In this document: positions 13,970 through 64,000 of the stretch, piece by piece
Layout: every line of letters begins with the position of its first letter
How positions within the stretch are numbered: the stretch's first letter is position 1
From: a virus
DNA length: 64,000 nucleotides
IMG/VR virus record: IMGVR_UViG_3300029825_000001
Span: 69,558 to 133,557 of that record
Direction: 5' to 3' (one strand)
The notes under the pieces: model-generated
Seen by the model: the letters and a program-made list of their open reading frames with translations, nothing else
Told to the model about the DNA's origin: nothing
Databases searched by the model: none
Translations under genes and position numbers: made by a program

Positions 13970-14046
13970 TGGCATAAGTGGAGCGACTCGAACACTCATT
14001 ATTCAGATTTGGAGTCTGACAGTTTACCAATTAATCTTACACTTAC
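13970..14046 (-). tRNA. trnW: tRNA-Trp (CCA)
   Basis: Acceptor GTAAGTG/CACTTAT, anticodon arm TCAGA-CTCCAAA-TCTGA, T arm GAGTG-TTCGAGT-CGCTC, encoded CCA end. Confidence 0.9.
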
Positions 14047-14050
14047 ATAT

Positions 14051-14127
14051 TGGTCTGAATAGAAAGATTTGAACTTTCGACCTTCGCATCCCAATTGCGA
14101 CACTCTACCAAACTGAGCTATATTCAG
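14051..14127 (-). tRNA. trnP: tRNA-Pro (TGG)
   Basis: C1:G72 and A73, D arm GCTC-AGTTTGGTA-GAGT, anticodon arm TCGCA-ATTGGGA-TGCGA, TTCAAAT loop, CCA end. Confidence 0.9.
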
Positions 14128-14315: not shown

Positions 14316-16889
14316 TTATTGCTTTCTGAGTCTATCTTTATCTAATTTGCCTATTCTTTGACATCCTTTACTACACCATACTTGGTCTATCATATTAGGA
14401 TTAATTTTGAATCTCTTCCCACATATCGGACAAATCTTCCCTAATCCTTCGGTATTGAATTTTAAATTCTCAACAATTTCTTGTCCAAAACATGCCCATA
14501 ATAATTTTTTATGTGATGATTTTCGTTTGGTATATAAATACTTAACTAAAGTATCAACAATAAATTCTTTGTCATATGGTAACCTTAACATTCTATTTCT
14601 TATCTTCTGATATATATATAAATCTTGTTCTGGTCTATAATCTTCATCTTCAAATTCATATTTAAAATATTGATGAACGTTCCAATAGTCATATGCTTTA
14701 ATTACAATTTTACTTTCTTTTGTTAATTCAAACTCTTGCTTATGTAATAATAAACAATGATTCATTTTACTTACTGTATTTGAAATTAATAATGGATTAC
14801 TAGGGATAATTGTATCAAGCATATTCATAGGGCTTCTATTTACTTCGGATACTTGATATTCTTCTTTATCCTTTGCATACACAAAGAAATGTGGTAATTT
14901 TAATTTAGTATATCTTTTAATTAAATCGTCTTTATTATTTGGTCTTTTAGGCATATATAATGTTTTAGCCATATCAATGCAGAAATTGTTTTCCATACAT
15001 AATAGTTTAATTACATCAATTTGTTCTTGTTTTACTTTACCACAATTCCAAATCTTAGATATGTTATTACTATATAGTCCAATCTTACCACCCCTATATG
15101 CCGATTCTAACCCCTCAAATAATACATTACTATTAATTATCTGACTTGGAGCTTTTTTCATATCATAATATAATGGAACAATATCTTTCATATTTCTTTT
15201 AGCTATTCTACATAATAATTTATCTGCCACAACTAGAAGCTTATCGCCATCTACATCAAACATGAGATATTTACTAATTAAATCTTTTGTACTTGTATAA
15301 ATGGCTTTTCCTTTAAACCATTTTTTAGTATTCTCATTAATTACGTTTTGTCTTACAACATGTTCTCTATAAAGATGTGGACTTCTCAAGCAATCTAAAT
15401 CAATTCCGTTTTTATAAATAGAACAACTAACTTCTCCATCATTCAATAGTCCATCAGGATTTTTTATACCTAAAAATAACCATTCACTAAAAGCATATAA
15501 ATCAGGTAATACAAAAGTATATTTTCCTTTAATTGATAGTTTTCCTGCTTTACCTTCTTTGATAAGACTATCTCTACAATCTTTTAAAATCTGTCTATTA
15601 TATTTATCTCTCATTAATTCAGGATAGATTTCTAATGCTTGTTGCATATAATTTTTATTTGTATTAAATCCAGTTACTCCTAATAATTTCATCATGGTAC
15701 GATAATCTGAACCGATACTATTAATATCATTAATTGTTCTTTGTGCCAATCTAGTCATTTCTTTCTCAGTAATATCAGATAATGTTTGAAGCATTTGATA
15801 ATTTATTTGTGCATCAGGAATATTTTCTTCTTCAACATTACAAACACATGCTTGACAATTATATTTTTTAAAATTAGTTTTATAATGTTCCCATGAATCG
15901 TAATACTTCCACATTTTAAACTGACTTTTTGTAAAAATATATCTAATATCTTCAGCAATAATATCTCGTTTTTTACCATAGATATCTGGTATAATTCCAA
16001 TTTTGGGATTTTTATATTTATCTCTCCATTCTAAAACTAAATTATAATAATCAAATACACCCATTAAACCTTTTACCCAAGGTAAACGTACCATTTCATT
16101 ATCACCATCAAGCATATATCCACAACCATCAGTATGAGGTATCGGTACACTCATGGTTTTTCTAATAATTTCATATGTATTATCATTAATAAAATCTACT
16201 ACACTTTCAACTAGAGTTTCAAAATCATCAACCACAATAGATTTATCAATATCAAAATTTTCCCATATATCTGTTGCACTATTATTTAAACTATAATATG
16301 CAAGATATTTATTAGCATTAATTCCACCTTTAGAATTAATAATATCCCATGTTAGTCCGCAAGTAAGAGTATTTTCATATTGCTTTAATAATGACTCTTT
16401 TACACTCACAAATTTTTTAGTTCTAATTTGACCTGCACTAGCACTAAACAAACTGTATTTTTGACCATTATATAAAAAACCATGTTTAATTAAATCTTCA
16501 GCAACTTGAAAATAATATACTTGAATTACCATAATATCATCTGTTAGTTTATTAGTTTTAAATCTTAATGTTCTTGTAAGATTAGATTCAAATATTGATA
16601 TAACTTTTTTATCATTGATACTGTCTGTTCTTAACACTCTTAACTGATTTAATTTTCTTGTATTTTCAAATTCATCATATAAATGTGATTTAAATTTGTT
16701 AATTATTTTATTTATTCTCTTTAAATGAAAATCATAATGTTTATATTTTTTATCCTTTTTATATCTCTTTTTAATCTTAGTTCTAATTGAATAGCATTTA
16801 GATAATCTTTTATGTATTTTATGTTCTGTATCAGTATAAAAACAAGCAGTATCAAAACTATATAAATGTATTTGTTTAGTTAATGCCAA
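14316..16889 (-). CDS. yonO: YonO-type single-subunit DNA-dependent RNA polymerase (cellular RdRP-like fold)
   Basis: 857 aa; SAGQIRTKK, DGCG, RLPWVKG, RSPHLY, catalytic MFDVDGD; upstream of late genes as in SPbeta. Confidence 0.88.
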   Translation of the reverse strand: MALTKQIHLYSFDTACFYTDTEHKIHKRLSKCYSIRTKIKKRYKKDKKYKHYDFHLKRINKIINKFKSHLYDEFENTRKLNQLRVLRTDSINDKKVISIFESNLTRTLRFKTNKLTDDIMVIQVYYFQVAEDLIKHGFLYNGQKYSLFSASAGQIRTKKFVSVKESLLKQYENTLTCGLTWDIINSKGGINANKYLAYYSLNNSATDIWENFDIDKSIVVDDFETLVESVVDFINDNTYEIIRKTMSVPIPHTDGCGYMLDGDNEMVRLPWVKGLMGVFDYYNLVLEWRDKYKNPKIGIIPDIYGKKRDIIAEDIRYIFTKSQFKMWKYYDSWEHYKTNFKKYNCQACVCNVEEENIPDAQINYQMLQTLSDITEKEMTRLAQRTINDINSIGSDYRTMMKLLGVTGFNTNKNYMQQALEIYPELMRDKYNRQILKDCRDSLIKEGKAGKLSIKGKYTFVLPDLYAFSEWLFLGIKNPDGLLNDGEVSCSIYKNGIDLDCLRSPHLYREHVVRQNVINENTKKWFKGKAIYTSTKDLISKYLMFDVDGDKLLVVADKLLCRIAKRNMKDIVPLYYDMKKAPSQIINSNVLFEGLESAYRGGKIGLYSNNISKIWNCGKVKQEQIDVIKLLCMENNFCIDMAKTLYMPKRPNNKDDLIKRYTKLKLPHFFVYAKDKEEYQVSEVNRSPMNMLDTIIPSNPLLISNTVSKMNHCLLLHKQEFELTKESKIVIKAYDYWNVHQYFKYEFEDEDYRPEQDLYIYQKIRNRMLRLPYDKEFIVDTLVKYLYTKRKSSHKKLLWACFGQEIVENLKFNTEGLGKICPICGKRFKINPNMIDQVWCSKGCQRIGKLDKDRLRKQ

Positions 16890-20673: not shown

Positions 20674-21747
20674 ATGAGTAATTTAGTAGAAAATATAAAT
20701 ATAAATACAAATAATATAGTTGGATTTAAAAACGATTCTATAAAGGAATCATTTGATGTATTTCTAAGCGAATATAAAAGTGAAAATACAAAAAAGAATT
20801 ATACTAGATATATTAATCAAGCTTTTATGTATTTGATTGGTAAAGATATTAATACAATATCATTATCTGACATTCAAAATTTAAATCAAGGTGATATAAG
20901 AAAATATAGAAGTTATTTAAGGCAAAATTATAAAGACAATACTACTAACCAAATGATATTTGCATGTAAAGCATTTTTTGACTATCTTATTGATTGTGAT
21001 AAAATAAATAAAAATTGTTTTCACATTAAAAAAATTAAAACTGAAGAAGTTGAAGTAAATTATGGTTCACTTACTGAATCAGAATTAGAAGGATTATATA
21101 ATTATTGTTTAGGTCTTAAAGATAGAGGAATAACCAAAAAGTTATATTTTGAATTTTTAGCTACAGTTACATGTAGAAAGTCTGTTGCACAAGAACTTAA
21201 GTTTAATGATATAGTGCGTAAATTAAATCCTAGTGATGGAAAAGAATATTGGGTTATTAATTCATTTGATAAAACTAGAATTGTAGATAGAGCTATTACT
21301 GATGAATTTTATGATAGACTTAAAGTCAATTTTGATTCTTATGATTGGGTAGACCAAAAGAAAGGTCTTATATTTAATGTTGGAGATAAGACTTTAGAAA
21401 AAACATTAAACGATTATTGTAAATTTGTAGGTATTGACAAGAAAGGTAGAAATATTGTTCAACATAGTATTAAATCTAGTGGATTAGATATTATTCAAGA
21501 TGCTTTTGGAGATATTAAGATTACTGCTAAAGCTGGAGGTCATGCAAGTATACAAACACCTTATAAAAAATATATTGGTAAGAATACAGATTATTCTCTA
21601 CAACCTAGTATCTTATTATCAGATAGAAATAATATGAATTGTTTAGATGAATTGAGCAAAGAACAATTATTAGATTTAGTGAAAAATAGTGGAATGATTA
21701 CTTTTAATAAAATATGTGCTAATGCAGAAAAAAGAGGTTTGATTTAA
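20674..21747 (+). CDS. Tyrosine recombinase / integrase family protein
   Basis: N-terminal SAM-like domain (SENTKKNY); catalytic set R (TCRK), K (DKT), HSIK (H-x-x-K instead of R), GH, Y (PYKKY); promoter TTGACT-16-TATAAT at 20573-20600. Confidence 0.85.
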   Translation: MSNLVENININTNNIVGFKNDSIKESFDVFLSEYKSENTKKNYTRYINQAFMYLIGKDINTISLSDIQNLNQGDIRKYRSYLRQNYKDNTTNQMIFACKAFFDYLIDCDKINKNCFHIKKIKTEEVEVNYGSLTESELEGLYNYCLGLKDRGITKKLYFEFLATVTCRKSVAQELKFNDIVRKLNPSDGKEYWVINSFDKTRIVDRAITDEFYDRLKVNFDSYDWVDQKKGLIFNVGDKTLEKTLNDYCKFVGIDKKGRNIVQHSIKSSGLDIIQDAFGDIKITAKAGGHASIQTPYKKYIGKNTDYSLQPSILLSDRNNMNCLDELSKEQLLDLVKNSGMITFNKICANAEKRGLI

Positions 21748-25750: not shown

Positions 25751-25805
25751 ATCCCTCTGACGAGTCTTTGAAAATTAAGACGAAACGGCTTAAGCCGTCA
25801 GGGAT
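25751..25805 (+). ncRNA. Type I hammerhead ribozyme
   Basis: Stem I ATCCCT/AGGGAT, core CTGACGA, stem II GTCTT/AAGAC, GAAA, stem III CGGC-TTAA-GCCG, GUC triplet with cleavage after C25799. Confidence 0.9.
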
Positions 25806-25858
25806 ATAAAGCATAGTTTAAAACAATAATTTTAAAGTATAACAGGAGGTTTTAAAAA

Positions 25859-41200: not shown

Positions 41201-43645
41201 TATGGATTGGTTGGAATATATTATATACTACAGCGTTTATCAAATGTAAAAACCAGACATACGATTTAAAACTACAACAAAATTGTAAAAATGTACACAT
41301 ATTATGGTTTAAAATTAAAGGAAAAACAATTGGCGATATACTCTTTAGATACATATTAAATATATGGTTTACAATCATAGTATTATTTATTAAGTTAATG
41401 AAAATAAAAGTGAGTATATAAAATAAGTCTTCTAAAGGATATTGGAAAGGAGTAACAAGATGAAACAAATTAATAAAATAAATTATATACCAAATTTCTC
41501 AAATATAACCAGTGTGGCGAGAATGTTAAATTTAGAACTAAACGAAGTGTTTCAAATACAAATGTTTACACATAAAAACCCTTATAAATTGTGGTACAAA
41601 ATAACAGAGCAAGGATTATTGTATTCTAATACAATTAATGGCTTTTATAATCATTCTGATGCTTTAGAAGGCATAATCTTAGGAAAACACCAAATAATTA
41701 AAATAGCTTAAAATCAATGTTTTAAAGGTTGGAAAGGAAGATATGAAATGACAAATGAACAACAAGAAATAAAGAAAGCATGGCTTCAGATTATGGCTAT
41801 CTTAGATGAAACTGGTTATAGCTTTATGTATATGGATGAAATTTCTAAAATTGCAAATGTGGTAAGAAAAGAAATTGGTTTGGATTAGTTGATGAGTTTA
41901 AAGATAAGGAGAATAAAAATAATGAGAGATTATATACATATGATTATGACACAACTAGCTAGTATTTTATTTAATGCAACTCAAAGAGCAAGCAATGTAA
42001 CTAAAGATGAAATACTGGATAGTATAAAACGAATGTTGGTTGATTACAACGCAATAGTCAAGGGTAGTGGTAACGAGGTTCAAATTAAAGATTTTAGAGA
42101 ACAAAATTAGCCATTAAATTCGGTATTCTATGGCACAAAAGGAAGTGATATAAATGAAACTAATAGACCAAATGGAAACAATAAAACTAATGGAAAGATA
42201 TAATAATACACCACGAAGAATTATTAAAGAGAATCTGCTCTATATAATCAAGAATAAAGAAAAATATGAAACTAAAGATATTACTCAGATGTTAGATATT
42301 ACACAGGTAAAAGTTCTAAGTTGGTTTAATATGTCAAGTCAAAATATACCTACTTTCTATGATGCATTAAGACTAGCAACAAAATGTGGTGTAGATATAG
42401 AAGAGTTTATAAATACGGAACGATTTGGTTATTTTAAGAGTTTTAAATATCCAATAGAGCAAAGTGTTAAAATAGCAGAATATGATTATTTTAAGGAGAG
42501 TGAAGCAATATGGCAGTAGTATTTTTCGGATTTTTATTTATAGTAGCAAAGTGCATTGAAGGTTAATTTTATTGAACTAAATAAAAAAGTTTTTAGAAAA
42601 TGTTACTAATTATTATTGACAGATAAAGGGGATTGGGATTATAATAAGGGTAAGTTAAAAGGGTAAAAAGAATAGGATATAGAAACCTTATTTTAAGGTG
42701 AATTTAGGAGTAAAAAATGAATTACGAAAATGAAATGATGAATTTAATACTTGAACATAAAAAACTAAAAGAGAACGAAGAGGAATTAAGAGACTTTTTA
42801 AACGACCTTAAAAATAATGCAGAAGAAACTAGCTTAGAATATGTAATTACAAGACTAGATATTATACTAAACAACCGTTAAAAACAAGATTTTATAGGAG
42901 GAAAACAAGATGAATGAAGAAGATGGAGAAGTTATTTTTGATTTAAACAATTATGTTTCTTGTACTAAAGAAGAATACGAAAAAGAAGTAAGTGAATATC
43001 TCAAGAAATCCATAGAAAAAGATAAAGAGTTTTGGGATACTCATAATGGATATAGCGATATGTCTATTCATTTAAATAAATCATTAGAAGAAGTCATGCA
43101 GTTAATCGAATTTAATATATGTTTAACTCTTCAAGGTCATGTTGAAAAGAAAATCAAATCATATAGAATTGGCAAAACATTTACATTAACTGATTTATTA
43201 AAATTAGCAGATGATAATTTTTATGAACAAATAAATGTATTATTAAGAAATAATAATTTCTTAGAAAATAATAGCAAAATTAAATATGAAATAATACAAT
43301 TAACATGGAGAGCAATAGGTATGGCAATTAAGAATAATAGACATTTATTAGCAGAAGTCAATGACTCAACATTTAAAAGAATTGCTAGTAAAAATGTTAA
43401 GAGGATTTAAATGCTCTAAGGAGTGGAAAGTGAGTATTAAGATGGATTATTTAGTAACTGGATATGGTCGTGGAATGTCCAGAAGCGGAATTGAATTTTG
43501 TAAGGTTAAAGCAAAATCTGAAGAAGATGCATTATCAAAAATTTATAAATCAATATGGTATGATTATCATGCAACAGAATTTAATCAATTAAAGTATGAT
43601 GAATTAAGAGATGATATTCATAATAGAGAAATTGTAAGCAATTAA
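38249..43645 (+). CDS. Cluster of small hypothetical early genes (38249-38554, 38607-38828, 39359-39754, 40123-40377, 40555-41097, 41170-41421, 41442-41711, 42154-42519 HTH-like, 42910-43410 DUF1413-like)
   Basis: Co-oriented ORFs with RBS, many delimited by the 16-bp palindrome. Confidence 0.6.
38892..39344 (+). pseudogene. ORF interrupted by in-frame TGA at codon 9
   Basis: RBS plus ATG 38892, MKRYKTYE*FPTYKEVLE... in frame with ORF 39030-39344. Confidence 0.55.
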
Positions 43646-43938: not shown

Positions 43939-44495
43939 ATTGGTGTTTAAATCAGACATTTTAATCGGTTTTAGAGATTTTAAAACGTTGAAATTTCAAT
44001 AGTTTAGAAAGGAGAAATTATGCAAAAAAGTGATTTTAAGAAAGAACAAATAGTATTTCTTAAATACATAGGAGATAGAAGACATGGTACAATTGGAGAT
44101 ATAAAAGAAGCTATTGTAAAAAGTGTTGGAAGTAAGTATATCACAGTTACTTTAGGTCGATGGGAAGAATACAAGTTTATTATTGATGAAGATTTTAGAC
44201 AATATTATGATATTGGTGGTCAAGATTATGAATTATATTTAACTAGACAACAGATTGAAGATGAAAATGAAGCATTAGAAATTACTGATTTCATTATAAA
44301 ATATATGCCACAGGGGTATGGCAGACATTGTGCTAAATTACCATTAGATAAGTTAAGACGTATTAAAGCAATTATAGAAGAATAAATACATTTAATATGT
44401 GTAAAAACTTTGTACAAAATTTTGATATAAGTATTGACATAAATTTTCCAATATGATATATTAATAATATCAAATAAGAAAGGAAAATAAAAAAT

Positions 44496-45925: not shown

Positions 45926-46497
45926 AAATAGATTATATGATTTATTATGAATGGGTTTATAAAACCCAATAGAAGATAAGTTTTATTTTGATTACACATC
46001 AATTAAAATAAATATAAAATCTTAAAACAGCAAAACAAAAAGGAGATATATAAGATGAACAGGAATTGGAATAATATTAAGATAGTACCTAAAGATAGTC
46101 ATTTAGAAGTTTTTAATGCAGATAATAAGTTCTTATTCTCAGCAGACAACATGGAAGAAGTTTATACTGAAGTTAACAGTCATATATTGCACTAAATAAA
46201 AAATATCAAACGTCTTAAAACAATATAAAATGGTTAGATAGTAAAAATAAATTATATTTTGCTTAGATAACCAAATAAAAACTCACATGAAAATTATAAT
46301 TATATGTCTAAATATGTCGAAAAATATCATAAAATACCATAAATATATAGTTAACAGTCATATCCCCTTATTGACTTTTTGCTATATGAGGTCTAATATA
46401 TTAATATAAATAAAAAATATTTTAGATATATGGTCGGAATTATCTGAAAATATTTTCCCCTAGACAATATGCACAAAAAGGTGTATATTAGTTTTTA

Positions 46498-46542: not shown

Positions 46543-47013
46543 ATGGTTAAATTTCAAAGCATTAGTAGTTTCAATCAAATACTAGATGAATTAACAGACC
46601 AAACAAAATGTAAAATTAAATTTACAAAGAATGACATCAAGCTATTACATAATAATATTACAACAGAGGATAATTTAAATAATTTTACATGTTGGTTTAA
46701 TGTTTTTAAAGATTTCTATACTCCAAGTCGTATAGTAAAAACCTATATAGAATATGGTCAAGAAAAGTATGGACAAACTTTGAGTAGAATTATTGAAATG
46801 TATAACAAGTTAGTTAAATATCATGTAGTAAATCCATTTAATCGAATGTATGACATAACTTTATTTGAATTACAAGATTTAATTAAAAATGAAAATGATT
46901 GGGATATGTTTTATCAGGTATGGCAAGAAATGAAAGATGATTATTGTTTTGGCAAAATCTTGTTTAGATTTAAGCAGAGCAAGATTGAGAGGTTAAAATG
47001 TGAAGCTAGTTAA
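46543..47013 (+). CDS. Hypothetical protein, predicted SOS-inducible
   Basis: 156 aa with AAGGAG RBS after the LexA box. Confidence 0.65.
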   Translation: MVKFQSISSFNQILDELTDQTKCKIKFTKNDIKLLHNNITTEDNLNNFTCWFNVFKDFYTPSRIVKTYIEYGQEKYGQTLSRIIEMYNKLVKYHVVNPFNRMYDITLFELQDLIKNENDWDMFYQVWQEMKDDYCFGKILFRFKQSKIERLKCEAS

Positions 47014-47143
47014 AAAAGAACTGAACAAAATAAAAAATATTTTAAAAAACACTTGACAATATATTTTTTGTGTTGTATTATTGTATCTACAAAGACAAAT
47101 AATATAAATAACACAAAAAATATATTGAAAGAGGTGTAGATAT

Positions 47144-47758
47144 ATGAATAAGGGGATTAATTTAGAAAGAGGACACATTTACATGTGTAATTTAGGTGAA
47201 ACTGTAGGTTCAGAACAGGGTGGAACTAGACCAGTTCTTGTAATTAAAAATCAAAAGGGAATAGATAATGGTAGTGTAGTGACAATCGTTCCAATTACTA
47301 GCAAAATTAATAAAGGTAAGAAATTGCCAACGCATATTTCTGTTGGAACAGAAAGTGGCTTATTAGTTGATAGTGAATTACAAGTAGAACAGACTACAAC
47401 AAAAGATAAAGAAAGATTTTTATTCTGTAATAAATATAATAATAATTATGAAGTTAGAAAACTTGGGGAAGTATCTGACTACATATTGAACAGAGTAGAA
47501 ACAGCATTGTCAAAAGACACAGGCTTTATTGAATTGTATTTCAATGAAAAACATGCTTATCATATATTAGATATGCTAACTTCAGCTATGAAAGCTAATT
47601 TAGACGAAATAAAAAACCATTTCATACATGAATTTAAAAATTATTGTGAACAGTATAACAAAGATTATAAAACAGTATTAAGCTATTACAAAGCAAATAA
47701 AACTATGAATATAACAGATGATTTATGTGTTGTTTCATGCGGACATAGATGTTCATAA
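47144..47758 (+). CDS. mazF: MazF/PemK (EndoA-like) endoribonuclease with C-terminal extension
   Basis: RGHIYMCNLG..VGSEQGGTRPVLVI...VPITS...LPTHI...EQ...DKER; about 70 extra C-terminal residues; promoter TTGACA-17-TATTAT at 47053-47081. Confidence 0.9.
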   Translation: MNKGINLERGHIYMCNLGETVGSEQGGTRPVLVIKNQKGIDNGSVVTIVPITSKINKGKKLPTHISVGTESGLLVDSELQVEQTTTKDKERFLFCNKYNNNYEVRKLGEVSDYILNRVETALSKDTGFIELYFNEKHAYHILDMLTSAMKANLDEIKNHFIHEFKNYCEQYNKDYKTVLSYYKANKTMNITDDLCVVSCGHRCS

Positions 47759-47796
47759 TTTTTAAATACAAAACTAAATAAAAAACTAAAAACCTC

Positions 47797-47825
47797 TTGA
47801 ACATACTACTGTAAAGTAGTATAAT
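47797..47825 (+). promoter_or_regulatory. Promoter with palindromic operator for the DndB-like/MrpR-like operon
   Basis: TTGAAC-17-TATAAT; perfect ATACTACT-GTAA-AGTAGTAT palindrome at 47803-47822. Confidence 0.7.
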
Positions 47826-47859
47826 ACATATTGATGTTTACAGGAGGTGTAATTAAAAT

Positions 47860-49191
47860 ATGATTAAAAAAAGAAGTGAACTCGAAGCGATAATAGACAA
47901 AATTATTAAAGTTAACAATACAAAGCAAGACATTGTTAAACCATTAAAAAAGAGTTTATTGGAACATAATATTAGTATTGGTGAGTTTCAAAGTATTTGG
48001 AATAAAAATAAAACACTAGATTCTATTGATGACTCTACATTATTTTTACTTACTAAATATTTATATGAATTAACACTTGAAGAAAATATAAAACCTGAGA
48101 CTTATTTTACTGAAACTGAAATAAGTGATGGTAATAATTATAAAAGGGAAATTGTCAGTGATATGATAGAATTACCTATTACTTTTGATGAAGTTATAAA
48201 AGTAACAGATAACCAATATATCACTACTTTAAGTATTCAAAAAATTAAGCAGTTACAAGATAGTAAATTAATTAGTTATAATTTTGATGCACAAAGAAAT
48301 CCTAAGTATAAAATAGATAACGAAGGTGAATTAATCAAGGTTGCTAATATTAAACCACAAGCTGTTAAAGAAATTTCTGATGATATGGTATCTGGAAAAT
48401 TTATCCCTAACACTATTACTTTAAACATATTACAGAATGGTGAGGAAGATTTTGTATTTGATGCAAAAGCACATGAATTAACTATAACACGTGGTATGAT
48501 TAATATTATTGATGGATTCCATCGTGAAATGGGGTTAATTGATGCTATCGGACAAAATGAAAGTTTAGACTTCCCTATGGAAATACGTATAACAAATTGG
48601 GATATACAGAAATGCCGTAATTTTATTCGTCAAGAATCTATTAGGAATAAAATTGATACAAAATATTTGTCATCTGTTATTAATGTAGATAAATGGGGTA
48701 ATAAAGTAGTTAATAAACTTAACGAAGGGCAATGTGATTTAAAAGGTAAGATTACCACTGATGTGGTTGTAATAAGAAAAAATAAAGCGTATACTATGTT
48801 TGATTTAATGTCTGATACAATTGATTTATTATGGGATATCAAAACCAATATGGATGTTAATAATTTGGCAAAATATTTAACAGAGTTCTTTGATTATATA
48901 GTAGGATATAAAGTTGAAGATTTTATTGAATCTTTATCAGAATCAAAAGAAAAAAGCGTTGTGACTTATCCAGCTATGTTTATTGGATATTTAGCAATTG
49001 CACATAAATTAGAAAAAGATAAAAATTGGCAAGATAAGTTAAGAGAATTTTTAGATAATACTGATTTTAGTTTAACTAATCCAATTTGGAAAGAACTTGA
49101 TATTATTGACAACAATTCATCTTTAGTTTTAAATATTAGAAAGTCAGGAAAGAAACATATTGTAAATTATTTTGTTACATTAGTTAAGTAG
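47860..49191 (+). CDS. DndB/ParB-like DGQHR-domain protein (SPbeta YopQ/SroE-like)
   Basis: FIPNTITLN and IIDGFHR motifs; directly upstream of MrpR-like gene as in SPbeta. Confidence 0.75.
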   Translation: MIKKRSELEAIIDKIIKVNNTKQDIVKPLKKSLLEHNISIGEFQSIWNKNKTLDSIDDSTLFLLTKYLYELTLEENIKPETYFTETEISDGNNYKREIVSDMIELPITFDEVIKVTDNQYITTLSIQKIKQLQDSKLISYNFDAQRNPKYKIDNEGELIKVANIKPQAVKEISDDMVSGKFIPNTITLNILQNGEEDFVFDAKAHELTITRGMINIIDGFHREMGLIDAIGQNESLDFPMEIRITNWDIQKCRNFIRQESIRNKIDTKYLSSVINVDKWGNKVVNKLNEGQCDLKGKITTDVVVIRKNKAYTMFDLMSDTIDLLWDIKTNMDVNNLAKYLTEFFDYIVGYKVEDFIESLSESKEKSVVTYPAMFIGYLAIAHKLEKDKNWQDKLREFLDNTDFSLTNPIWKELDIIDNNSSLVLNIRKSGKKHIVNYFVTLVK

Positions 49192-49205
49192 AAAGGGGTG
49201 TAAAA

Positions 49206-50207
49206 ATGTACAATGCAGAACTTAAAAACAGATTTTTAGAACAATATAGTAATGTTAAAACAAGAAAAACATATAGTGATAGTTTGAGCCAAATTAATGA
49301 TATGGAAGAACTATATGATAAAGACGTATTTCTTTTTACTTATGAGGAATTACATGAAGCTTTGAATGGAATTAGAACAAAGACATCTTCTGGAGCAGGA
49401 AGAATTATATCGCCTATTATGAAATATATAGATTTTGCAAATGAAGAAGGTTATGTTCCATCAAAAATAACTTACACAAAGTTGTTTAAAGGGAAAAAAC
49501 TAGAAGAATATATTTCATCTTACGCTTTAAATAATAGTTATATTGTAAGAGATGAATTATATGATATTTGCTCATATCTAACAAATGATATGGATAAATC
49601 AATTTTAGTAATGGCTTTTGAAGGAATTGATGGTAGGGAACATTTTGAAATGAGAAATTTGAAAAAACAAGATATTAATTTTAGTACAGGAGAAGTAGAA
49701 GTAACTAATATTGATGGAGAGATTAGGAAAATTACCATTGAGGATAAAAGAAGTTTAGATATACTTGAAGATACTATAAAAGAAACTGAATATAAGTTCA
49801 GTAATGGAGCAGAACTATTAAGAGCAAAAGATGATATTTTAGAAAATACTCCTTATTTATTAAGAAGAGTAGAAAGCAAACTTTCAAATACAGAAATAGA
49901 AGATGAACGAGTAACATCAAATTTCTTATCTTGCAAGGTTACAGTATTCTTTAAAGGTAAAAAAGTAAAAAAGAATATAATTGCTGACCCTCCGTATGTG
50001 CCAAATTATCAATTTCTCAACATAACTAATGTTTTTAAAAGTGGATTCTTTGATTATTGTACACAATTAGAACAGAAAAAAGGAATTAAATTAGAAACAA
50101 AAGATTATAAAACGGCATGTGAAAGATACGGCATTAATCCTAATAATATTCCTTCTTATAAAAAACAATATCTTGATTGGAAAGAAAGAATCAATCGAAA
50201 GGGGTAG
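49206..50207 (+). CDS. mrpR: MrpR/YopR-like repressor (degenerate tyrosine recombinase fold)
   Basis: MYNAELKNRFLEQ...EELYDKDVFLFTYEEL...KYIDFA; LVMAFEGIDG replacing the catalytic Arg region. Confidence 0.75.
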   Translation: MYNAELKNRFLEQYSNVKTRKTYSDSLSQINDMEELYDKDVFLFTYEELHEALNGIRTKTSSGAGRIISPIMKYIDFANEEGYVPSKITYTKLFKGKKLEEYISSYALNNSYIVRDELYDICSYLTNDMDKSILVMAFEGIDGREHFEMRNLKKQDINFSTGEVEVTNIDGEIRKITIEDKRSLDILEDTIKETEYKFSNGAELLRAKDDILENTPYLLRRVESKLSNTEIEDERVTSNFLSCKVTVFFKGKKVKKNIIADPPYVPNYQFLNITNVFKSGFFDYCTQLEQKKGIKLETKDYKTACERYGINPNNIPSYKKQYLDWKERINRKG

Positions 50208-50210
50208 GGA

Positions 50211-50633
50211 ATGAAAGATTTACATGAAACTTTTATTGAAATGTATGAAAAACAACATTTTTTATCCTTTTATTTTCAAGAGATTAACAAAAGAGGATAT
50301 AGTATAAAAGAGACACAATATATTAAAGGGAAATTAGAAGTAATTGAAGAATTTATAGATAATTTATCTTATAGGGTATTACACAATTTATTAATGTCTA
50401 GTTCAAATAGACGGCTTGATAGAATAATATTTGGGGCAGAGAAAATAATCGAAATAATTCAATGCCCTGAAGACTTTAAATTAGTTATTGATTTAGATAA
50501 ACTTGATGATAATGATGTAAGGGATGCATTAGTTTTTAAAGATTTAAGACAGAAATATTGTTATTTTCAGCACAAAGAAAAATGTGAAATTGGACTTAGG
50601 TATATTAATAATAAATGGCAAGTATTATCTTAG
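50211..50633 (+). CDS. Hypothetical protein in repressor operon
   Basis: 140 aa, 3 bp after mrpR-like gene. Confidence 0.6.
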   Translation: MKDLHETFIEMYEKQHFLSFYFQEINKRGYSIKETQYIKGKLEVIEEFIDNLSYRVLHNLLMSSSNRRLDRIIFGAEKIIEIIQCPEDFKLVIDLDKLDDNDVRDALVFKDLRQKYCYFQHKEKCEIGLRYINNKWQVLS

Positions 50634-50653
50634 ATAATAGGGGGAATATATAA

Positions 50654-51067
50654 ATGAATTTTGGTGAAAAACTTGGTTATCAATTATTGAAAAATGGATA
50701 TAACTACTCTACAGAATTTGCTCCAAAGGTAGATTTGAGTGAAAAAACAATTAATCAATATAAAAGAAAAGAAACAGCAGACGGAATAGACGTAATGAGG
50801 CTAATGAAAATAGCTAATGCATTAGGTATATCATTGGATTATCTTATAGGAAATGATGATGAAAATGAAGAAATACAAATTGATGATTATAAATATATTA
50901 ATGCAAATAACATTGAAAGTATACAAATTGAAGATTTAGTTAATGAGATGAAAGCAATAATTAAAGATAAAGAATGTATTTTTAAGAATAAAGAAATTAA
51001 TGACGAGAAAAAATATCTTATTGATAGTTTAGATATAGGATTTAAATTAATAAAGCAGAACACCTAA
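50654..51067 (+). CDS. XRE HTH regulator
   Basis: FAPKVDLSEKTINQYKR....LMKIANALGISLDYLIG. Confidence 0.8.
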   Translation: MNFGEKLGYQLLKNGYNYSTEFAPKVDLSEKTINQYKRKETADGIDVMRLMKIANALGISLDYLIGNDDENEEIQIDDYKYINANNIESIQIEDLVNEMKAIIKDKECIFKNKEINDEKKYLIDSLDIGFKLIKQNT

Positions 51068-51421: not shown

Positions 51422-51700
51422 GTGAACTACCCACGACTAAAGTCACGGGTTTCAAGGAGCTAAGTTCACCAGACTAAGTATAGAGAAATCTATACTACGA
51501 TAATTTAGTTATGATACCTTTGGTTAACGCATCAGACCATTGCTCTATCGTATATATTTAAGTAGAACTGAGGTAAGGTTCGGTGATATATACATGTAAG
51601 CTATTTTATCATTGTCGAGATGATGACGGATTCTTATTATGGTAATAGTAATAAGATACGCATAACCTACTTTTTAGTAGAGTATTTTCAGAAAGGAACT
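51422..51700 (+). ncRNA. omegaRNA (HEARO) scaffold of IscB
   Basis: GTGAAC...GTTCACCAGACT opening stem, CTACGATA, ATTGTCGAGA segments typical of omegaRNA; directly 5' of iscB. Confidence 0.8.
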
Positions 51701-51705
51701 GAATT

Positions 51706-52965
51706 ATGGTATATGTAATTGATATGAACAATAACCCATTAATGCCTTGTACTAATGTGATAGCTAGACTATTGTTAAAACAAGGTAAAGCAAAATGTAT
51801 TAAACGAACTCCATTTACAATTAAACTTTTGTATCAAACTAAAAACTACACTCAAAATATAATACTTGGTGTGGATACAGGCAGTAGTAAAATTGGAAGT
51901 TCAGCAGTCAAAGATAATGGAGATGTAATTTATTTATCTCAAGTAGAAATAAGAAATGATATAACCGATAAAATGAAACAACGTTCAAAATATAGAAGAA
52001 ATAGACGTAATAGAAAAACAAGATATAGAAAAGCACGTTGGTTAAACAGAAAAAATAGTATTAAGAAAGATAGATTTTCACCAACTATGGTTAGTAAAAT
52101 TAATAGTCATTTAAAAGAAATTAATTTTGTTAAATCTATATTACCAATTAGTAAGATTATACTTGAAACTGCAACATTTGACCCACATTTAATGAAAAAT
52201 CCAATGTTGTACAATGAAAAATATAAACATTGGGGTTATCAGAAAGGCATTAATTATGGATTTGCAAATACTAAAGCATATGTTTTAAATAGAGATAATT
52301 ACACATGTCAACATTGTAAAGGAAAATCTAAAGATAGTAAATTGGAAGTTCATCATATTGTGTTTAGAAGAAATGGTGGTTCTGATGAACAATATAATTT
52401 AATCACTTTATGTAAAACTTGTCATGATAAATTGCATAAAGGTTTAATTAATTTAAATAAAAATGGTAAGGTTAAAAGTCAATTAAAACATGCAACCCAA
52501 ATGAATAGTATTAGGCAACAATTATTAAGATTATTACCAGAGGCAGAAGAAACATTTGGATTTATAACTAAAGAGCATAGACAAATAATGAATTTACCTA
52601 AAGAACATTACATGGATGCAGTATCAATAGCAAGTCAAGGAAATGAGATTAATTTTAAAACTAATGTAATCTTGTTTAAAAAGTGTGTATCTAAAGGTGA
52701 TTATCAACAAAGTAAGGGAGTTAGGAGTGAACAAAGAATTCCCACAGGTAAAATACAAGGTTTTAGAAAATATGATAAGGTTAGATATTTAGGAAAAGAG
52801 TATTTTATTAAAGGAAGAATGTCAACTGGTTTTGCAATATTAATGGATATAGAAGGAAATAAAGTTGATTTTAAAGATGCACCAAAAGGTATGAAAACTC
52901 CTAAAATGAAAAATATGAAAAAAATTACAAGTAGAAAATCATGGATTATACAAGAACAAAATTAA
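51706..52965 (+). CDS. iscB: RNA-guided endonuclease IscB
   Basis: PLMP, RuvC-I GVDTGS, Arg-rich bridge helix, RuvC-II ILETATFD, HNH (EVHHI...NLITLCKTCH), RuvC-III HYMDA. Confidence 0.95.
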   Translation: MVYVIDMNNNPLMPCTNVIARLLLKQGKAKCIKRTPFTIKLLYQTKNYTQNIILGVDTGSSKIGSSAVKDNGDVIYLSQVEIRNDITDKMKQRSKYRRNRRNRKTRYRKARWLNRKNSIKKDRFSPTMVSKINSHLKEINFVKSILPISKIILETATFDPHLMKNPMLYNEKYKHWGYQKGINYGFANTKAYVLNRDNYTCQHCKGKSKDSKLEVHHIVFRRNGGSDEQYNLITLCKTCHDKLHKGLINLNKNGKVKSQLKHATQMNSIRQQLLRLLPEAEETFGFITKEHRQIMNLPKEHYMDAVSIASQGNEINFKTNVILFKKCVSKGDYQQSKGVRSEQRIPTGKIQGFRKYDKVRYLGKEYFIKGRMSTGFAILMDIEGNKVDFKDAPKGMKTPKMKNMKKITSRKSWIIQEQN

Positions 52966-55015: not shown

Positions 55016-55815
55016 ATTAACTGCAATAAATATAAAATAAATATTGACATAAGGCTTGGTTGGTTGTACTATAGAAATATAAGGAAGATAATCAAGCCTT
55101 TAAATGTTATATTTTAATTGGTGGAAAGGAATAAATATTATGGGAATGGATTATTCATATTCAGGTTCTTCTTCTTACCCAAGATTTGATAGAGAGATAA
55201 AATCATTAGTTGAATTATTTGGGGGAAGAGAAACAAAAGAATTAGAAAAAAGAAAAGAAACAGAGAATGAAAGACCTTGTGGATATTGGTTTGGTTATAT
55301 GAGTTCAGCAGAACCAAATATGCAGAAGTATGTTTTTCCGAAAGAAACAAACGAAATATTAGTGAAATGGTTTAATAATATATATAATACTTTTACAGAA
55401 GAAGAAACAGTAATAGTTTTTACTGAAATAAAAAAACATAAAGCAAAAGTATTGGAAATATCAAGCCAAATTTATAATGAATTAGAGACATTATGTGAAT
55501 GTAATGAAGGATGGTATATTTATTGAAAAAATTGAAGAATACCAATTCAAAGACCATTTTATAAGTAGGAGGTGAGGTTTTGGAAATTGTTAAAGATAAT
55601 AGACCAACAATAAATACTGAATGTTGGAGTTGTAAATCTATTTTAAAAATTAATAAAGAGGATATAACCGTAGATTACAAAAAAGGATATGCAATATATA
55701 ATTATTATTGTCCATTATGTAGGAGCTTGAACGGCATTACTGCATTACAATATGCTGAATTAAATAAATATATATAAGCATAAATAAAAAAGTTACATAC
55801 AGAAAAGAGGATGAC

Positions 55816-56957: not shown

Positions 56958-58559
56958 CATAGAATACAAGTTTTATTTGGTGAAAGGAGAAAAAATGAAA
57001 ATTGAAAATGAAACAAAAAATATAGAAGTTACAAAAGAAATAATAAAAGCTGTATATAGTGAAATAGATATTAAAAATTTAATTCTTGCAGACTTAAAAT
57101 CACAAGGCTATAACGTACAAGCTATATTGTTTAAAACAAATTACAAATATGTATCTGATGAATGGGGAATGAATTGCCATTCTGTAACTGAATTTTGTGG
57201 AGCTGAAGTCTTATTAGATAAAAATAATACCATTTAAAATTTATGTTTTATATAGGAAGGAGTAAATAAAAAATATGAACAATAAACAAGAATTACTACA
57301 TAGAGCTATTCAACATTATAAAACTATGGTGATAGCAGATATAAACATAGATGATGATTTAGCTAAGTATAGAAGAGTTGCTTTAGAAGCACTTAAATCA
57401 GAATTAGAACGAGAAGAATCTGATGGTTGTGAGTATTGTAATACTGAAAATAAATTTACAGAAACAGGTGTATCAATTATTTCTAAACCATATTTACAAG
57501 TTTATATTGCAAAACAACCTATAGATAATAGATATTACTTAACGACAAGTGAATATGAAGAATTGAAGAGTAGAAAAGGACAATATGATAACAGTCCTTT
57601 TAGAAGTGATAAGAGAGAAATATATTATTGCCCTAAATGTGGAAGAAAGTTGTGATAAATAACAAATAGTACACCATATATAGTGATAAAATTGTTATTA
57701 TATACAAAATATAGAGTGAAAACTACTATAAATTCATCGTTTTAACGGTAGAAAGGTAAAGTAAATGAACGAAATAAAATATACATATGGATGTGAGAAT
57801 AAAAAATATCATGTAGAATATTATCCCAATCAGTTAGAAAGGCAAGAACAATATGGAATGACTCTTAAGGTTAATGGTATTGTTAAACATTTTGACCCAT
57901 CATGCCAAATAGCAATTCAAACTGCTAAATGTGATTTTATATTAATTGATAGTCGTTTAATTGCAGTAATGCGACCAATGAATGAGTTTGAAATAAAGGA
58001 TTTTGAGAAATTAGAGGTAAAAAATGAGTAATATAAAATATTATTGTTTGTATTCACAATGTCCATTAACAGACTGTGAAAAACATTTAAAACAACCATT
58101 TGATAAAACTGGTGAATATATTAATTTAAAAGATTATGCTCCAATATGTGAAAGATATATTGGGTGGTTAGTAGATAAGGAAAGGGGAAAATAAATATGG
58201 ATATTAAAATTAATGATACAGAAATAGAAAAGTTAGTAAAAGCTCAAGTAAATCAAAAAATTACTGAAAAAGTAAATAGTGTTTTTAAGAGTTGTTATAG
58301 CAATAAAGACTATATTGAATATAAAATTAGAGAAATTGTTGAAGAAAAGATTAATGGTATATTAGAAGAAAATTTAGACGGAATGATATATGAAGTAATT
58401 CAAAAATGTGATAAGAAACAAATAGCAAACAATATAAAAACAGAATTTGTAGAAGGATTACTTGATAAATTAACAGAAAGAGAATGGTAAATAAAAGGTG
58501 AGTTTTAATTGGTGTTATATGTAATAAATATAAAATAAGGAAAGGAATAGTTATAGATA

Positions 58560-59255
58560 TTGACAAGAGAAGAACGTAAACAAAAGAAATATGATGAAAC
58601 ACATAAAATTATAGATGGAGTATTATATAAAAAATGTAGTAGTTGTGATGAGTGGTACATATTAAATGAGGATAATTTTTATAAACATAAAACATCTTCT
58701 GATGGTTTTCATCCATATTGTAAGGAATGTAATATTATTAAGAGTTATCTTTGGACTAGAAGCCATTTAGATAGATATAATGAAAGTAATAAAAGACATA
58801 AAGAAACACAGAAATTTAAAGATAATCGTAAGAAAATATCACAAAGACAAAGAGATGATGGATATTGCAATGAATATTATAGTTTAAATAAAAATAAGTT
58901 CAAAGAATATGGAGAAAAGCATAGAAAGCATGAAATATCAAGTAAAGAATGGAAGTTGAATAAGGATTATTTTAAAAACAAAGATGGAGAATGGTGTTGT
59001 GCTTATTGTGGAATTACTGAAACAGAACATAAAAAATTATACAATCAGCAATTACAGAAAGACCATGTACAGTATGACGGTAAAAATGATTTGTCTAATT
59101 GTGTACCTGCTTGTAAACCATGTAATAGTAGTAAGAAACAATATGACATAGAAGAATGGTATAGACAACAAGAATTCTTTTCAGAAGAAAGATTAAATAA
59201 GATATATAAATGGATTAAAGAAGATTATAAACAATACATAAAAATTACCGAATAA
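58560..59255 (+). CDS. HNH endonuclease with N-terminal Zn finger
   Basis: KKCSSC...YCKEC; CAYCG...KDHV...NCVPACKPCNSSK. Confidence 0.88.
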   Translation: MTREERKQKKYDETHKIIDGVLYKKCSSCDEWYILNEDNFYKHKTSSDGFHPYCKECNIIKSYLWTRSHLDRYNESNKRHKETQKFKDNRKKISQRQRDDGYCNEYYSLNKNKFKEYGEKHRKHEISSKEWKLNKDYFKNKDGEWCCAYCGITETEHKKLYNQQLQKDHVQYDGKNDLSNCVPACKPCNSSKKQYDIEEWYRQQEFFSEERLNKIYKWIKEDYKQYIKITE

Positions 59256-59292
59256 AGCTGTTATTTTAATGGATGTTATAGAAAGGAGATAA

Positions 59293-60966: not shown

Positions 60967-61045
60967 TTGCACTTTAATACAATAAAGTGAACGCTGGAAT
61001 TTCAACGTTTTAAAAATACAAAAACCGATTAAAATTGCACTTTTA

Positions 61046-63571
61046 ATGGTGTGGAAAGAAGAATTAAGAATGAAGATAAAATTATTAACTCGTGACACTA
61101 TTAGCAATATAATGGAATTTGTAACATACATAAATAAGAGCAATAATATGACAGCATTAGCCCAAGAACAATCTGAAGATGGGTATTATGTTATCTGTGT
61201 AGAATCATTTGAAGAAGGAGAGCAATAATGGCTAGAAAATCAAAAGAAGAAAAAGTACATGAAAACAAATCACAAGAACAAATTAAGTTAAAAGATGCTT
61301 TAATTGAATCAAAATTATCTCCTGAAGATATAGTATATATACATAAACACAATGTATACGGAGATGAAAAATACTTGGTTAAGGATATTGAAAATAATAT
61401 ACTAAATAAAAAAGTAATGGGAATAAATCAACACTATAACAGTGAATTACGTGCATCTGACGGATTTAGATTTATGATTGAATAGGAGAAATAAAAAATA
61501 TGATAGAAAATACTTGGGATAATGGGTTTGATTTTGAAAATATGTCAAAAGAAGAATTAATTGATGCAATAACACATCATTGTCCATATCAAAAATGTAT
61601 TAAAGAAATTGAAGGATATAATTTTATTGTAGGAAGATATTACTATTATGAACAAACATGTGAAGATGAAGTTGGTTTTTGTTGTAAGAACATATGTTAT
61701 TTAAGCTTTGATGAAGCAAGAGAACATTTTGTTTAGAGAGGATAAAAATATGAATAGCAAAGAAATATATGAAAATTTATATAATTTAGTCACTCATGTA
61801 GATACAATTAGTAAAGCTAATTTGAAATATGCTAAAGAACTTCAGATAGTCTTATACAACCTAGAAATAGAATCTGCTCATATTAATGAAGCTAATGGGT
61901 TGTTAGCTATTGCAGAAGAATTAAGTCGCATACTCAATAACATCATTAAGCATACAGATGAGTTAATTAAAGAAGATGATGAAGTTATTGAAGGCACTAT
62001 GAGCGAATTAAAGGGTGTTTTGAATATATAGAAAGGAGAAATTATGAGTAAACAATATACGTGGGAATCTGAATTAAATAAGGAAATGTGGCAACATGAT
62101 TGTTTTAATTCACCAACAGATTGTATTTTAGATGCAGTTGAAAATTATGGATATAAATCAGGTGAAACAATTTATATTGGTGTAACTGTAGATTTTGGAA
62201 TTAATGTTGATGCAACTGATGTATTAGAGAAATTAGAGGAAGAAGCATATGAATTTGCAGAATCAGCAGAAGATTGGAACACATTTAATTATAAAGAAGA
62301 TAAAAAAGAATTAGATGAATTAAGTGAACAATTGAGTGATGTGATTATTAAATGGTTAGAAAAGCATAATAACATGCCTAATTTTTATCAGGTTATTGAT
62401 GTTCAACCATTTAAAATTTGAATTTTAAGGTGAAATAGATGAAAGAAGATATTAATAATCCATATTTTAATTTGAAACATTATGAGTTTAATGATTTGGA
62501 AGACTTGATAAATTCATATAAATCATTTGATGGATTACATAAAGCTAAATTAAATTGGTTAGATAGATTAATTTCAAAAGAGCATAAATATGGATATAAC
62601 CGAATGTGTGTATTTGGACTATGGTTAATGTGTGGAGCATTTCTTCCATTCTGGATATTATTTATGTTTTTAATAGGTAATTACACTAATAATAGTAATG
62701 CTATTGGAGGAATAAGTTTCGTAATTTGTTTTATTATAGGAATTGTATTTGAACTGATTTATCAACATAGTTGTGACAAGATAGATTACAATTCATTAAT
62801 GGATAAAGTTGCTCAGATTAATATATTTGAGTGGTTAGAAAGAAATTAAAATGAGACATTTAATGGGGTGAAATATGAATATAAATAATGAAATACCTAA
62901 ATATAGAAAAAAATCTAAATCTACTAATAAGGCTAAATCAGACCATAAACATGAATATACAGACTGTTTATTGTTTGATGGTAAGTCACATTGGAAAGGT
63001 ACTTACTGTAAAATTTGTGGCAAGATTGGTGATAGAAAATGGGAGACTGAACCAATAGAACTACATGGTAAAATGTTCCATAGATTATTACATAATGAAG
63101 AATTAGTACTAAAATACAAAGATTTAAATGTATTTAATATTAATAGTGATGGTAAATATATTGAAAAATAGGTATAAAATGTACGTTTTAATGTACGAAA
63201 AGGAGATAGGAATGAAAATAACAAGAAATAAAATTACACCAGTTATAAACCCAAACTATCAAGTTAAAGAAGCTCCACAAGAGTTAATTAAAATATTAAT
63301 AAACAGTGGCACAATACCTGTAGTTACTACCAGTTTAGATAAATTATGTGATGATAACATATCATTTAGTGTTAATGAGGATGATGTTATAGGTTACGTG
63401 ACATTTAGTTGTTATGAGCCAACATTAGAAGATAACGGATTTATTTACGCTGATATTTCATGGTGTAAAGATGACTACAAAGACTATCAATGGGCAAATT
63501 GTGAGTTCGAAGTAGATTGTAATATGAATATCACTAGATTTATATGTGTACAATATGAAATGGTGGATTAA
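61046..63571 (+). CDS. Cluster of small hypothetical genes (61046-61228, 61228-61485, 61500-61736, 61708-62031, 62044-62421, 62439-62849 membrane, 62875-63171, about 63212-63571)
   Basis: Co-oriented ORFs with RBS; last three each bracketed by the 16-bp palindrome. Confidence 0.65.
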
Positions 63572-63633
63572 AACAGAGATTTTATATGTAATAAATAAAA
63601 AAATAATTAGAAAGAGAGGGCAAAATATATTAT

Positions 63634-64000
63634 TTGAGAGGTAAAAAAGCATTATATAGAGATATAAACGGAATTATAGAAAAGCAATGTACAAAATGTG
63701 GGAAATGGTTTCCTAATACAGAAGAACATTTTTACAAATTAAAATGTGTATGTAAAATATGCCTAAAAGAGCAACGTAAAATATATAGAGATAATAATAA
63801 AGAAAAAATAAAACAATATGAAAAAATGTATACCATAAAGAACAAAGAAAAACAAAGAAAAAAAGATAAATTATATTATGCAAATAACAAAGAAAAAGAA
63901 AGAGAAAGAAAGTTTAAACAAAAATATAATTTATCTTTAGATGAATATAATGCGATGTTAAAAAATCAAGATAATAAATGTCTTATATGCGGAAATGAAC
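63634..64000 (+). CDS. Endonuclease VII-like protein, truncated by window edge
   Basis: TTG start; KQCTKC...CKIC Zn finger; KYNLSLDEYNAMLKNQDNKCLICG. Confidence 0.7.
   Translation, partial: MRGKKALYRDINGIIEKQCTKCGKWFPNTEEHFYKLKCVCKICLKEQRKIYRDNNKEKIKQYEKMYTIKNKEKQRKKDKLYYANNKEKERERKFKQKYNLSLDEYNAMLKNQDNKCLICGNE

Follow-up and report, generated by a model that had tools for sequence, protein, structure and literature searches.

A dispersed AT-rich palindrome between small early genes of an SPbeta-like phage as a possible joint for gene exchange

The window analysed here comprises 64,000 nucleotides (nt), bases 69558-133557 of the 135,434-bp viral record IMGVR_UViG_3300029825_000001 (26.6% G+C). 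Between positions 62407 and 63590 it carries four copies of a 16-base AT-rich palindrome, TAAAA-N6-TTTTA, built of five fixed, six free and again five fixed bases: TAAAATTTGAATTTTA at 62412, TAAAATGAGACATTTA at 62847 (one mismatch), TAAAATGTACGTTTTA at 63175 and TAAAACAGAGATTTTA at 63569. Each gap between neighbouring sites is occupied by a single open reading frame (ORF), called here ORF A (62439-62849), ORF B (62875-63171) and ORF C (63212-63571), and 12-22 nt beyond the sites at 62412, 62847 and 63175 there is a Shine-Dalgarno-like run with an ATG. A preliminary description of this DNA had stated that the four sites each separate exactly one ORF, with the ribosome-binding site (RBS) placed after the site; the positions of sites and ORFs agree with this, and the other one-gene units which it named were likewise found to be present. 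Genes and sites of the segment are as follows.

62044..62421, plus strand: phrog_1672 ORF of 125 amino acids (aa), crossing the left arm of the site at 62412, with its TGA stop in the centre
62412..62427, unstranded: exact site with centre TTTGAA; the ATG of ORF A lies 12 nt beyond
62439..62849, plus strand: ORF A (136 aa), a predicted membrane protein that ends with the TAA of the site at 62847
62847..62862, unstranded: one-mismatch site (ATTTA as right arm); in contig L025 the ORF A homologue is followed by a site of similar centre
62875..63171, plus strand: ORF B, 98 aa, small Cys-rich protein; homologues at 47-55% identity in site-free contexts
63175..63190, unstranded: exact site with centre TGTACG; a same-centre site precedes the ORF C homologue in contig L017
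63212..63571, plus strand: ORF C, 119 aa; its stop is the TAA of the site at 63569; homologues with and without sites
63569..63584, unstranded: exact site with centre CAGAGA, followed by an SPBRE-like box and then by an endonuclease VII/HNH-type gene
63634..63999, plus strand: start of this endonuclease VII/HNH-like gene, which exits the window; a paralogous unit at 58560-59255 likewise stands behind a site and an SPBRE-like box

None of ORFs A, B and C matched Pfam or a named PHROG. Peptide-pattern searches of viral and genome contig collections found no close relatives of the three ORFs or of the neighbouring large genes, and megablast and blastn searches against deposited phages returned HNH fragments only.

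The exact form of the palindrome occurs 37 times in the genome against 6.7 copies expected from k-mer frequencies, and no other 5-N-5 palindrome comes close to this enrichment; the reversed control pattern occurs 6 times. Of the 37 exact copies, 25 fall for the larger part of their length into non-coding DNA, which makes up 11.5% of the genome, and 19 are wholly non-coding, against 1.09 +/- 0.99 expected (200 Markov shuffles of the non-coding DNA). A raw count of one-mismatch copies over the whole window was not significant (61 vs 52.8); the signal resides in the exact copies and their location between genes. The two plus-strand early arms have about 4 sites per kb of non-coding DNA, the minus-strand late arm 1.7. 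The six-base centres are all different among the 55 intergenic copies of the genome. In this phage the flanks show a weak outer symmetry (roughly A.C... on the left and ...G.T on the right), which extends the element to about 28 bp (~11-6-11); no covariation was found between the two flanking sides.

The position of the stop codon relative to the 34 early-region sites of the window varies: 7 sites contain it, 13 have it 1-15 nt upstream, and for the other 14 the distance is larger. The next start codon follows 12-28 nt beyond the right arm at 19 of these 34 sites. All seven internal stops are formed by the TAA of the left arm (at 41709, 42879, 43643, 57235, 59253, 62847 and 63569), and this part of the preliminary description stands, whereas the variable distance between stop and site does not support its cassette reading. 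Its further proposal, that the palindrome itself encodes C-termini, is not supported. The ORF ending at 62421 reads QPFKI-stop through the left arm. In ORF C, the terminus CVQYExV[D/Q] and the TAA stop are identical in homologues with and without a site. With TAA in the left arm and either TAA or TAG in the right, the motif alone closes two of the three reading frames; genes packed tightly against the sites therefore often end inside them. Stop codons within the palindrome are thus a by-product of tight gene packing behind a motif that begins with TAA. Further sites of this kind in the window include the following.

41709..41724, unstranded: exact site; its TAA is the stop of ORF 41442-41711
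42879..42894, unstranded: exact site; its TAA is the stop of the 54-aa ORF 42717-42881
56960..57250, plus strand: one-gene unit composed of the site at 56960, an 86-aa ORF and the site at 57235, whose TAA is the stop of the ORF
59253..59268, unstranded: site with one mismatch (TAAAG) that provides the TAA stop of the HNH/endonuclease VII gene 58560-59255

Several genes in the window have counterparts in Bacillus phage SPbeta. The 857-aa product of 14316-16889 is ~48% identical to YonO, the single-chain RNA polymerase of that phage, the gene at 49206-50207 matches the core-binding and catalytic-fold domains of MrpR, and the gene at 47860-49191 is DndB/YopQ-like. MrpR, also named YopR or SroF, is the repressor of tyrosine-recombinase fold whose operators are the SPBRE boxes, present in ~10 copies in SPbeta (PMC10516654). 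A further gene of this fold was found at the head of an early arm.

20674..21747, plus strand: YopP-type tyrosine-recombinase-fold gene, YopP homologue with E = 7e-23

The homologues of YonO, MrpR and YopP identify the phage as SPbeta-like and place the sites in its early/accessory arms.

The same element is found in SPbeta itself. In the early region (50 kb), TAAAA-N6-TTTTA is the top palindrome with 15 exact copies vs 0.94 expected (P ~1e-13), and the whole SPbeta genome has 36 copies of TRAAA-N6-TTTYA vs 3 of the control, 29 of them in the early arm. The TAA of a site serves as the stop codon of yoqG, yoqS and yoqY, sites stand 19-25 nt before the starts of yoqD, yoqE, yoqU and yoqY, and some adjoin terminators, just upstream of SPBRE boxes (e.g., at aimR and yorE). 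A variant, TGAAA-N6-TTTCA, mixed with TAAAA/TTTTA, lies between small genes of the groundwater phage contigs L020 and L025, and variants of this type occur also in L035 and L036, the latter adjoining a YonO-type gene. The element is a hallmark of SPbeta-like phages, in which it occupies short spacers between small co-oriented early genes. Two large phages outside the SPbeta group carry it as well, Bacillus phage vB_BanS_Nate (NC_071044.1; 22 vs 2 for the control) and Geobacillus virus E3 (NC_029073.1; 30 vs 7), and given these two the element may be wider than the SPbeta family. The system is absent from Clostridium phage D-1873 (11 copies vs 4.5 expected, with no shared flanks or RBS link), from provirus G001 (13 vs 6.4 expected) and from the 100-kb contig behind L015. 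No mention of the palindrome was found in the papers examined on SPBRE/MrpR, SroF and arbitrium or in those reviewing SPbeta, a body of work to which the genome paper of Lazarevic et al. (1999) was not counted.

To relate the sites to the mosaic structure of these phages, we analysed SPbeta, phi3T, SPbetaL2 and SPR, considering spacers of 20-400 nt between co-oriented genes and scoring as a break any break of homology vs another phage. Such breaks were present in 30 of 46 site-bearing spacers and in 17 of 77 length-matched site-free ones (odds ratio 6.6, P = 3e-6). The excess had the same direction in 4/4 genomes, and the odds ratio rose to 8.6 for spacers of 20-80 nt; in the SPbeta group, mosaic junctions are concentrated at the sites. 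Homology blocks begin preferentially at -2 to 0 from the first base of the site and end at +13 to +17, and entire sites with their centres are common to relatives while the adjoining outer sequence is unrelated. For instance, a block of 3.2 kb that is 100% identical between SPbeta and phi3T extends from one site into the right arm of another, and the site with centre GATGCA joins flank A to flank B in SPbeta, flank A to flank C in SPbetaL2 and flank D to flank C in SPR. Across the four phages, same-centre sites follow one another in a constant order, while of the 22 intervals between adjacent shared sites 13 lack homology over most of their length; some of these are wholly replaced, such as one of 2319 vs 1954 bp with no homology. 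A site accompanies the upstream block about as often as the downstream block. Taken as sequence comparisons, these results suggest that the sites act as joints for gene exchange.

The three ORFs between 62412 and 63569 can be followed into other contexts. All three proteins are also encoded on a near-identical contig of 137 kb. ORF A was found in five of them (this phage, L020, L025, L035 and L036), and in 5/5 a site stands directly upstream, each time with a different centre. It is the only sequence common to L020, L025 and this phage over the 8-10 kb compared in each, which substantiates the idea of single-gene units in unrelated neighbourhoods. In L025, the downstream site, whose centre resembles that of 62847, supplies the stop of the ORF A homologue. 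The ORF A homologues share a conserved core followed by variable tails of 1-12 residues, the palindrome supplying the stop codon only; such tails would fit different 3' joints. For ORF C, the homologue in L017 (87% amino-acid identity) lies within a stretch of homology that reaches from the left edge of the same-centre (TGTACG) site into the downstream site, and one more site follows two genes further on. Homologues at 69-81% amino-acid identity occupy three site-free contexts, and there the DNA homology covers ATG to TAA only. One of these is L015/L016 on the 100-kb contig (81% amino-acid and 85.6% DNA identity), where ATG and TAA are the exact limits of the homology, unrelated genes adjoin it and no sites occur across the whole 20 kb of the locus; L018 and L019 are site-free, too. 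The homologues of ORF B likewise lie in site-free phages. The check proposed in the preliminary description, whether homologues carry the same flanking sites elsewhere, gave an upstream site with differing centres for ORF A, the same-centre site for ORF C in L017, and no sites for ORF B or for three ORF C contexts. As judged from these comparisons, ORFs A-C are single-gene mosaic units, framed by sites solely in phages carrying the system; the site is not part of the gene.

We consider it an even call that this dispersed, dyad-symmetric element serves as a DNA joint which a protein recognises and where phages exchange gene units. Relatives would keep a site with its own centre in place while one flank, or the DNA between two sites, is swapped for unrelated genes. 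The exchange would most likely proceed by short-homology recombination between sites that match in arms and centre, with the 16-20 identical bases of same-centre sites probably providing a homology patch between otherwise unrelated DNA. Phage annealing proteins of the Rad52, Sak and Sak4 types can use short homology patches, and the annealing-type recombination module carried by these phages (Sak4-type YorG in SPbeta) is a candidate agent. The fixed arms are not needed by homology alone and argue for a protein, which leaves room for a dedicated recombinase. Several points weigh against such a joint. The case is made by sequence comparison, its junction statistics derive from Bacillus relatives rather than from this phage, and junctions in different genomes are non-independent events. 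The sites could also be mere companions of variable accessory genes; the association with junctions would then arise without a causal role. The rather constant spacing from site to start codon would also fit a role in expression. Finally, ORF B and ORF C have homologues in phages without any sites, and the exchange of these genes is to that extent independent of them.

It is unlikely, if conceivable, that the sites are the targets of a dedicated recombinase, e.g., of YopP type, with the arms binding the enzyme and the unique centres acting as addresses for exchange between same-centre sites. The layout is that of a tyrosine-recombinase core site, with inverted arms around a six-base centre (5-6-5 in all phages examined, here ~11-6-11). 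Centres that are unique within a genome would prevent self-deletion and permit exchange with the same joint elsewhere; moreover, they keep their order among relatives while the intervening DNA is replaced, and homology blocks take in entire same-centre sites. YopP has a homologue in this phage and in every SPbeta-group phage examined, integration of SPbeta relies on another enzyme, SprA, and the YopP-bearing Nate and E3 are both enriched for the motif. However, short-homology recombination accounts equally well for the retention of centres, and YopP, here as in SPbeta, has lysine at the position of the second catalytic arginine (H-x-x-K). Co-occurrence of YopP and motif is mixed, as Brevibacillus phage Sundance and Lactococcus phage 949 have YopP homologues and no comparable palindrome system, and L015 has a weak YopP-like gene and no sites. 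We regard YopP as a candidate site-binding protein. A full scheme of position-specific cassette exchange appears distinctly unlikely; in it, an integrase-fold phage protein would sit on the arms with the centre as address, and co-infecting phages would swap genes between matching joints with order kept and without deletion of their own DNA. As an observation in its own right, YopP-type integrase-fold proteins occur in 75 deposited phages, including large virulent phages of the Lactococcus 949 group and Bacillus phages of ~165 kb.

A purely regulatory role, in which the sites would work like stoperators or roadblocks, or as docking places of a silencer such as SroE/YopQ, and would be linked to junctions indirectly through accessory genes, is likewise unlikely in our estimation. 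It agrees with the concentration of sites in early arms between stop codon and RBS and with the symmetric degeneration of the arms, as in a protein site. SPbeta-like phages also have a second repressor, SroE/YopQ, to which the YopQ/DndB-like gene at 47860-49191 corresponds in type, and homologues of site-flanked genes move without sites. By contrast, breaks located exactly at site edges and whole sites common to otherwise unrelated flanks speak for the exchange joint, as do the three times fewer junctions in length-matched site-free spacers. Chromatin affinity precipitation sequencing (ChAP-seq) of the master repressor, covering that repressor alone, found SPBRE boxes only. Two other candidates were rejected: as a promoter, the right arm would lie too near the start codon for a leader and lacks a -35 element at 17-bp spacing, and a site for a CRP/FNR-type activator is ruled out by position.

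Action of the sites in mRNA, where a hairpin would serve in processing, stabilisation or termination or would control translation of the gene downstream, is very improbable. Many sites do lie 12-28 nt before start codons, and a hammerhead ribozyme 14 nt before the site at 25819 suggests processing of early mRNA. The hairpin would have five A-U pairs only, though, and twelve RNA stretches of 34 nt folded with 0 to -5.3 kcal/mol, no better than shuffled sequence (z-scores -1.4 to +1.2), the best fold ignoring the palindrome in 5 of the 12. Covariation was not found. Among 58 exact and 57 one-mismatch copies from six phages, A-to-G changes in the left arm (G-U type) numbered 16 vs 11 T-to-C changes in the right arm (A-C type), without significant asymmetry, and at the second arm position the two types numbered 7 and 8. 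Moreover, several sites, in SPbeta and here, stand between a terminator and the next operator or promoter and hence outside transcripts. Symmetric and independent degeneration of the arms, a free centre and the lack of an RNA fold together point to a double-stranded DNA site of a paired protein, and we infer that the element is read in this form by a putative protein of that kind. The ribozyme mentioned above (25751-25805, type I hammerhead, 34.6 bits vs the Rfam threshold of 34) is located between two early genes.

Almost certainly wrong is the analogy to integron cassettes drawn in the preliminary description, with an attC-type site at the 3' end of each gene and an integrase inserting at a fixed point: arrays of small, co-oriented, mostly promoterless genes divided by imperfect palindromes that sometimes overlap the stop, and an integrase-fold gene at the head of the early arm, recall such a system, but the sites measure 16-28 bp rather than 57-141 bp, lack RYYYAAC/GTTRRRY cores and single-strand folding, and accompany either flank, whereas attC always stands at the 3' end of the cassette. 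Furthermore, the centres do not travel with the gene (five ORF A contexts, five centres), and site-free homologues exist, contrary to a rule of gene with site. The integrase-fold gene is of YopP type, with H-x-x-K and a match to Pfam Phage_integrase below threshold, and no IntI-type integrase was seen in a comparison that did not extend to the IntI-specific insertion.

Two known systems are closest in behaviour, the dif modules found on Acinetobacter plasmids and the PeSL cassettes of phages of the T4 type. A PeSL consists of a sigma-70 promoter together with a terminator stem-loop, and regulatory activity has been demonstrated for PeSLs; these short conserved elements are dispersed among small non-essential early genes, and recombination between copies accounts for insertions, deletions and replacements between relatives (Arbiol et al. 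2010, PMC2839356). Here, too, relatives differ by replacement at dispersed copies, with the excess and the edge-bound breaks reported above. In contrast to PeSLs, the 16-bp AT palindrome has a free centre, no promoter or terminator features and an unstable RNA stem. The pdif (XerC/XerD) sites, which flank dif modules on Acinetobacter plasmids, resemble the host dif and are thought to use the host Xer proteins (PMC6449649). They share with our element the palindrome-like form, the six-base centre and the accessory modules of one or a few genes that recur in different replicons, whereas the arms here match no dif consensus, and many co-linear sites, each with its own centre, occur per genome. 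The SPBRE boxes of the same phage family are likewise a repeated intergenic element, bound by an integrase-fold protein without recombination; unlike the palindrome, they are non-palindromic and stand beside promoters. Their counterpart here, TAAATAAAAAATAT, frequently has a palindrome a short way upstream but is distinct from it. In cluster A mycobacteriophages, the stoperators, which are the sites of the L5 repressor gp71, are asymmetric, oriented with transcription and present in both arms. They resemble our sites as dozens of short protein-binding sites in short intergenic spaces of temperate-phage operons; they are known repressor sites and are not known as exchange joints. The element looks like one of the linker or regulatory-cassette kind.

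If the sites are true exchange joints, they would explain how accessory arms are rebuilt gene by gene with order kept, and they would offer a simple way to predict where modules begin and end in phage DNA that lacks annotation. Among the genes in the accessory arms of SPbeta-like phages are anti-defence genes, toxins and numerous orphans. Should arms and centres be read by a dedicated enzyme, the system would be a natural analogue of cassette exchange between heterospecific (lox) sites, or of dif modules. SPbeta is a model temperate phage, and the idea is directly testable in Bacillus subtilis with existing genetics.

The window contains further repeated elements. The box TAAATAAAAAATAT, often extended by TACAT, stands beside sigma-A-like promoters and resembles the SPBRE of SPbeta (CAAATACAAAAAATATGTATA), the operator of MrpR. 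Examples are located as follows.

46200-46215, 47030-47050, 55030-55050, 58515-58535 and 63590-63605: TAAATAAAAAATAT boxes

Internal repeats of the genome consist only of short promoter/operator stretches, several of them beginning at pairs of palindrome and TAAATAAAAAATAT. A different palindrome, AACG(T/C)TG(A/G)AATTTCAA, followed by a T/A run, occurs at 43984-43999 and 60990-61005 (2 copies vs 0.02 expected), and similar copies were seen beside the YonO-type gene of L036 and in provirus G001 (L006). This palindrome may serve as a signal to the RNA polymerase that the phage encodes.

The repressor module at 46543-51067 comprises a 156-aa gene, a MazF/PemK-like toxin (47144-47758), the DndB/YopQ-like gene, the MrpR homologue, another gene and an Xre-type helix-turn-helix gene. 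Downstream of the yonO homologue, tRNA genes for Trp-CCA and Pro-TGG lie on the minus strand (13970-14127). The segment 44720-45925 encodes a 401-aa protein with OrfB_IS605 and Cas12f1-like TNB domains (TnpB type), with no TnpA seen nearby. At 51422-52965, a HEARO RNA (Rfam RF02033, 105.8 bits) is placed directly 5' of a 419-aa HNH endonuclease gene, a layout typical of IscB genes and their guide RNAs (IS200/IS605 family). The two endonuclease VII/HNH-type genes at 58560-59255 and 63634-63999 are both preceded by the palindrome, then by TATGTAATAAATA and then by an A-rich box, which suggests a repeated mobile nuclease unit inserted directly behind a site.

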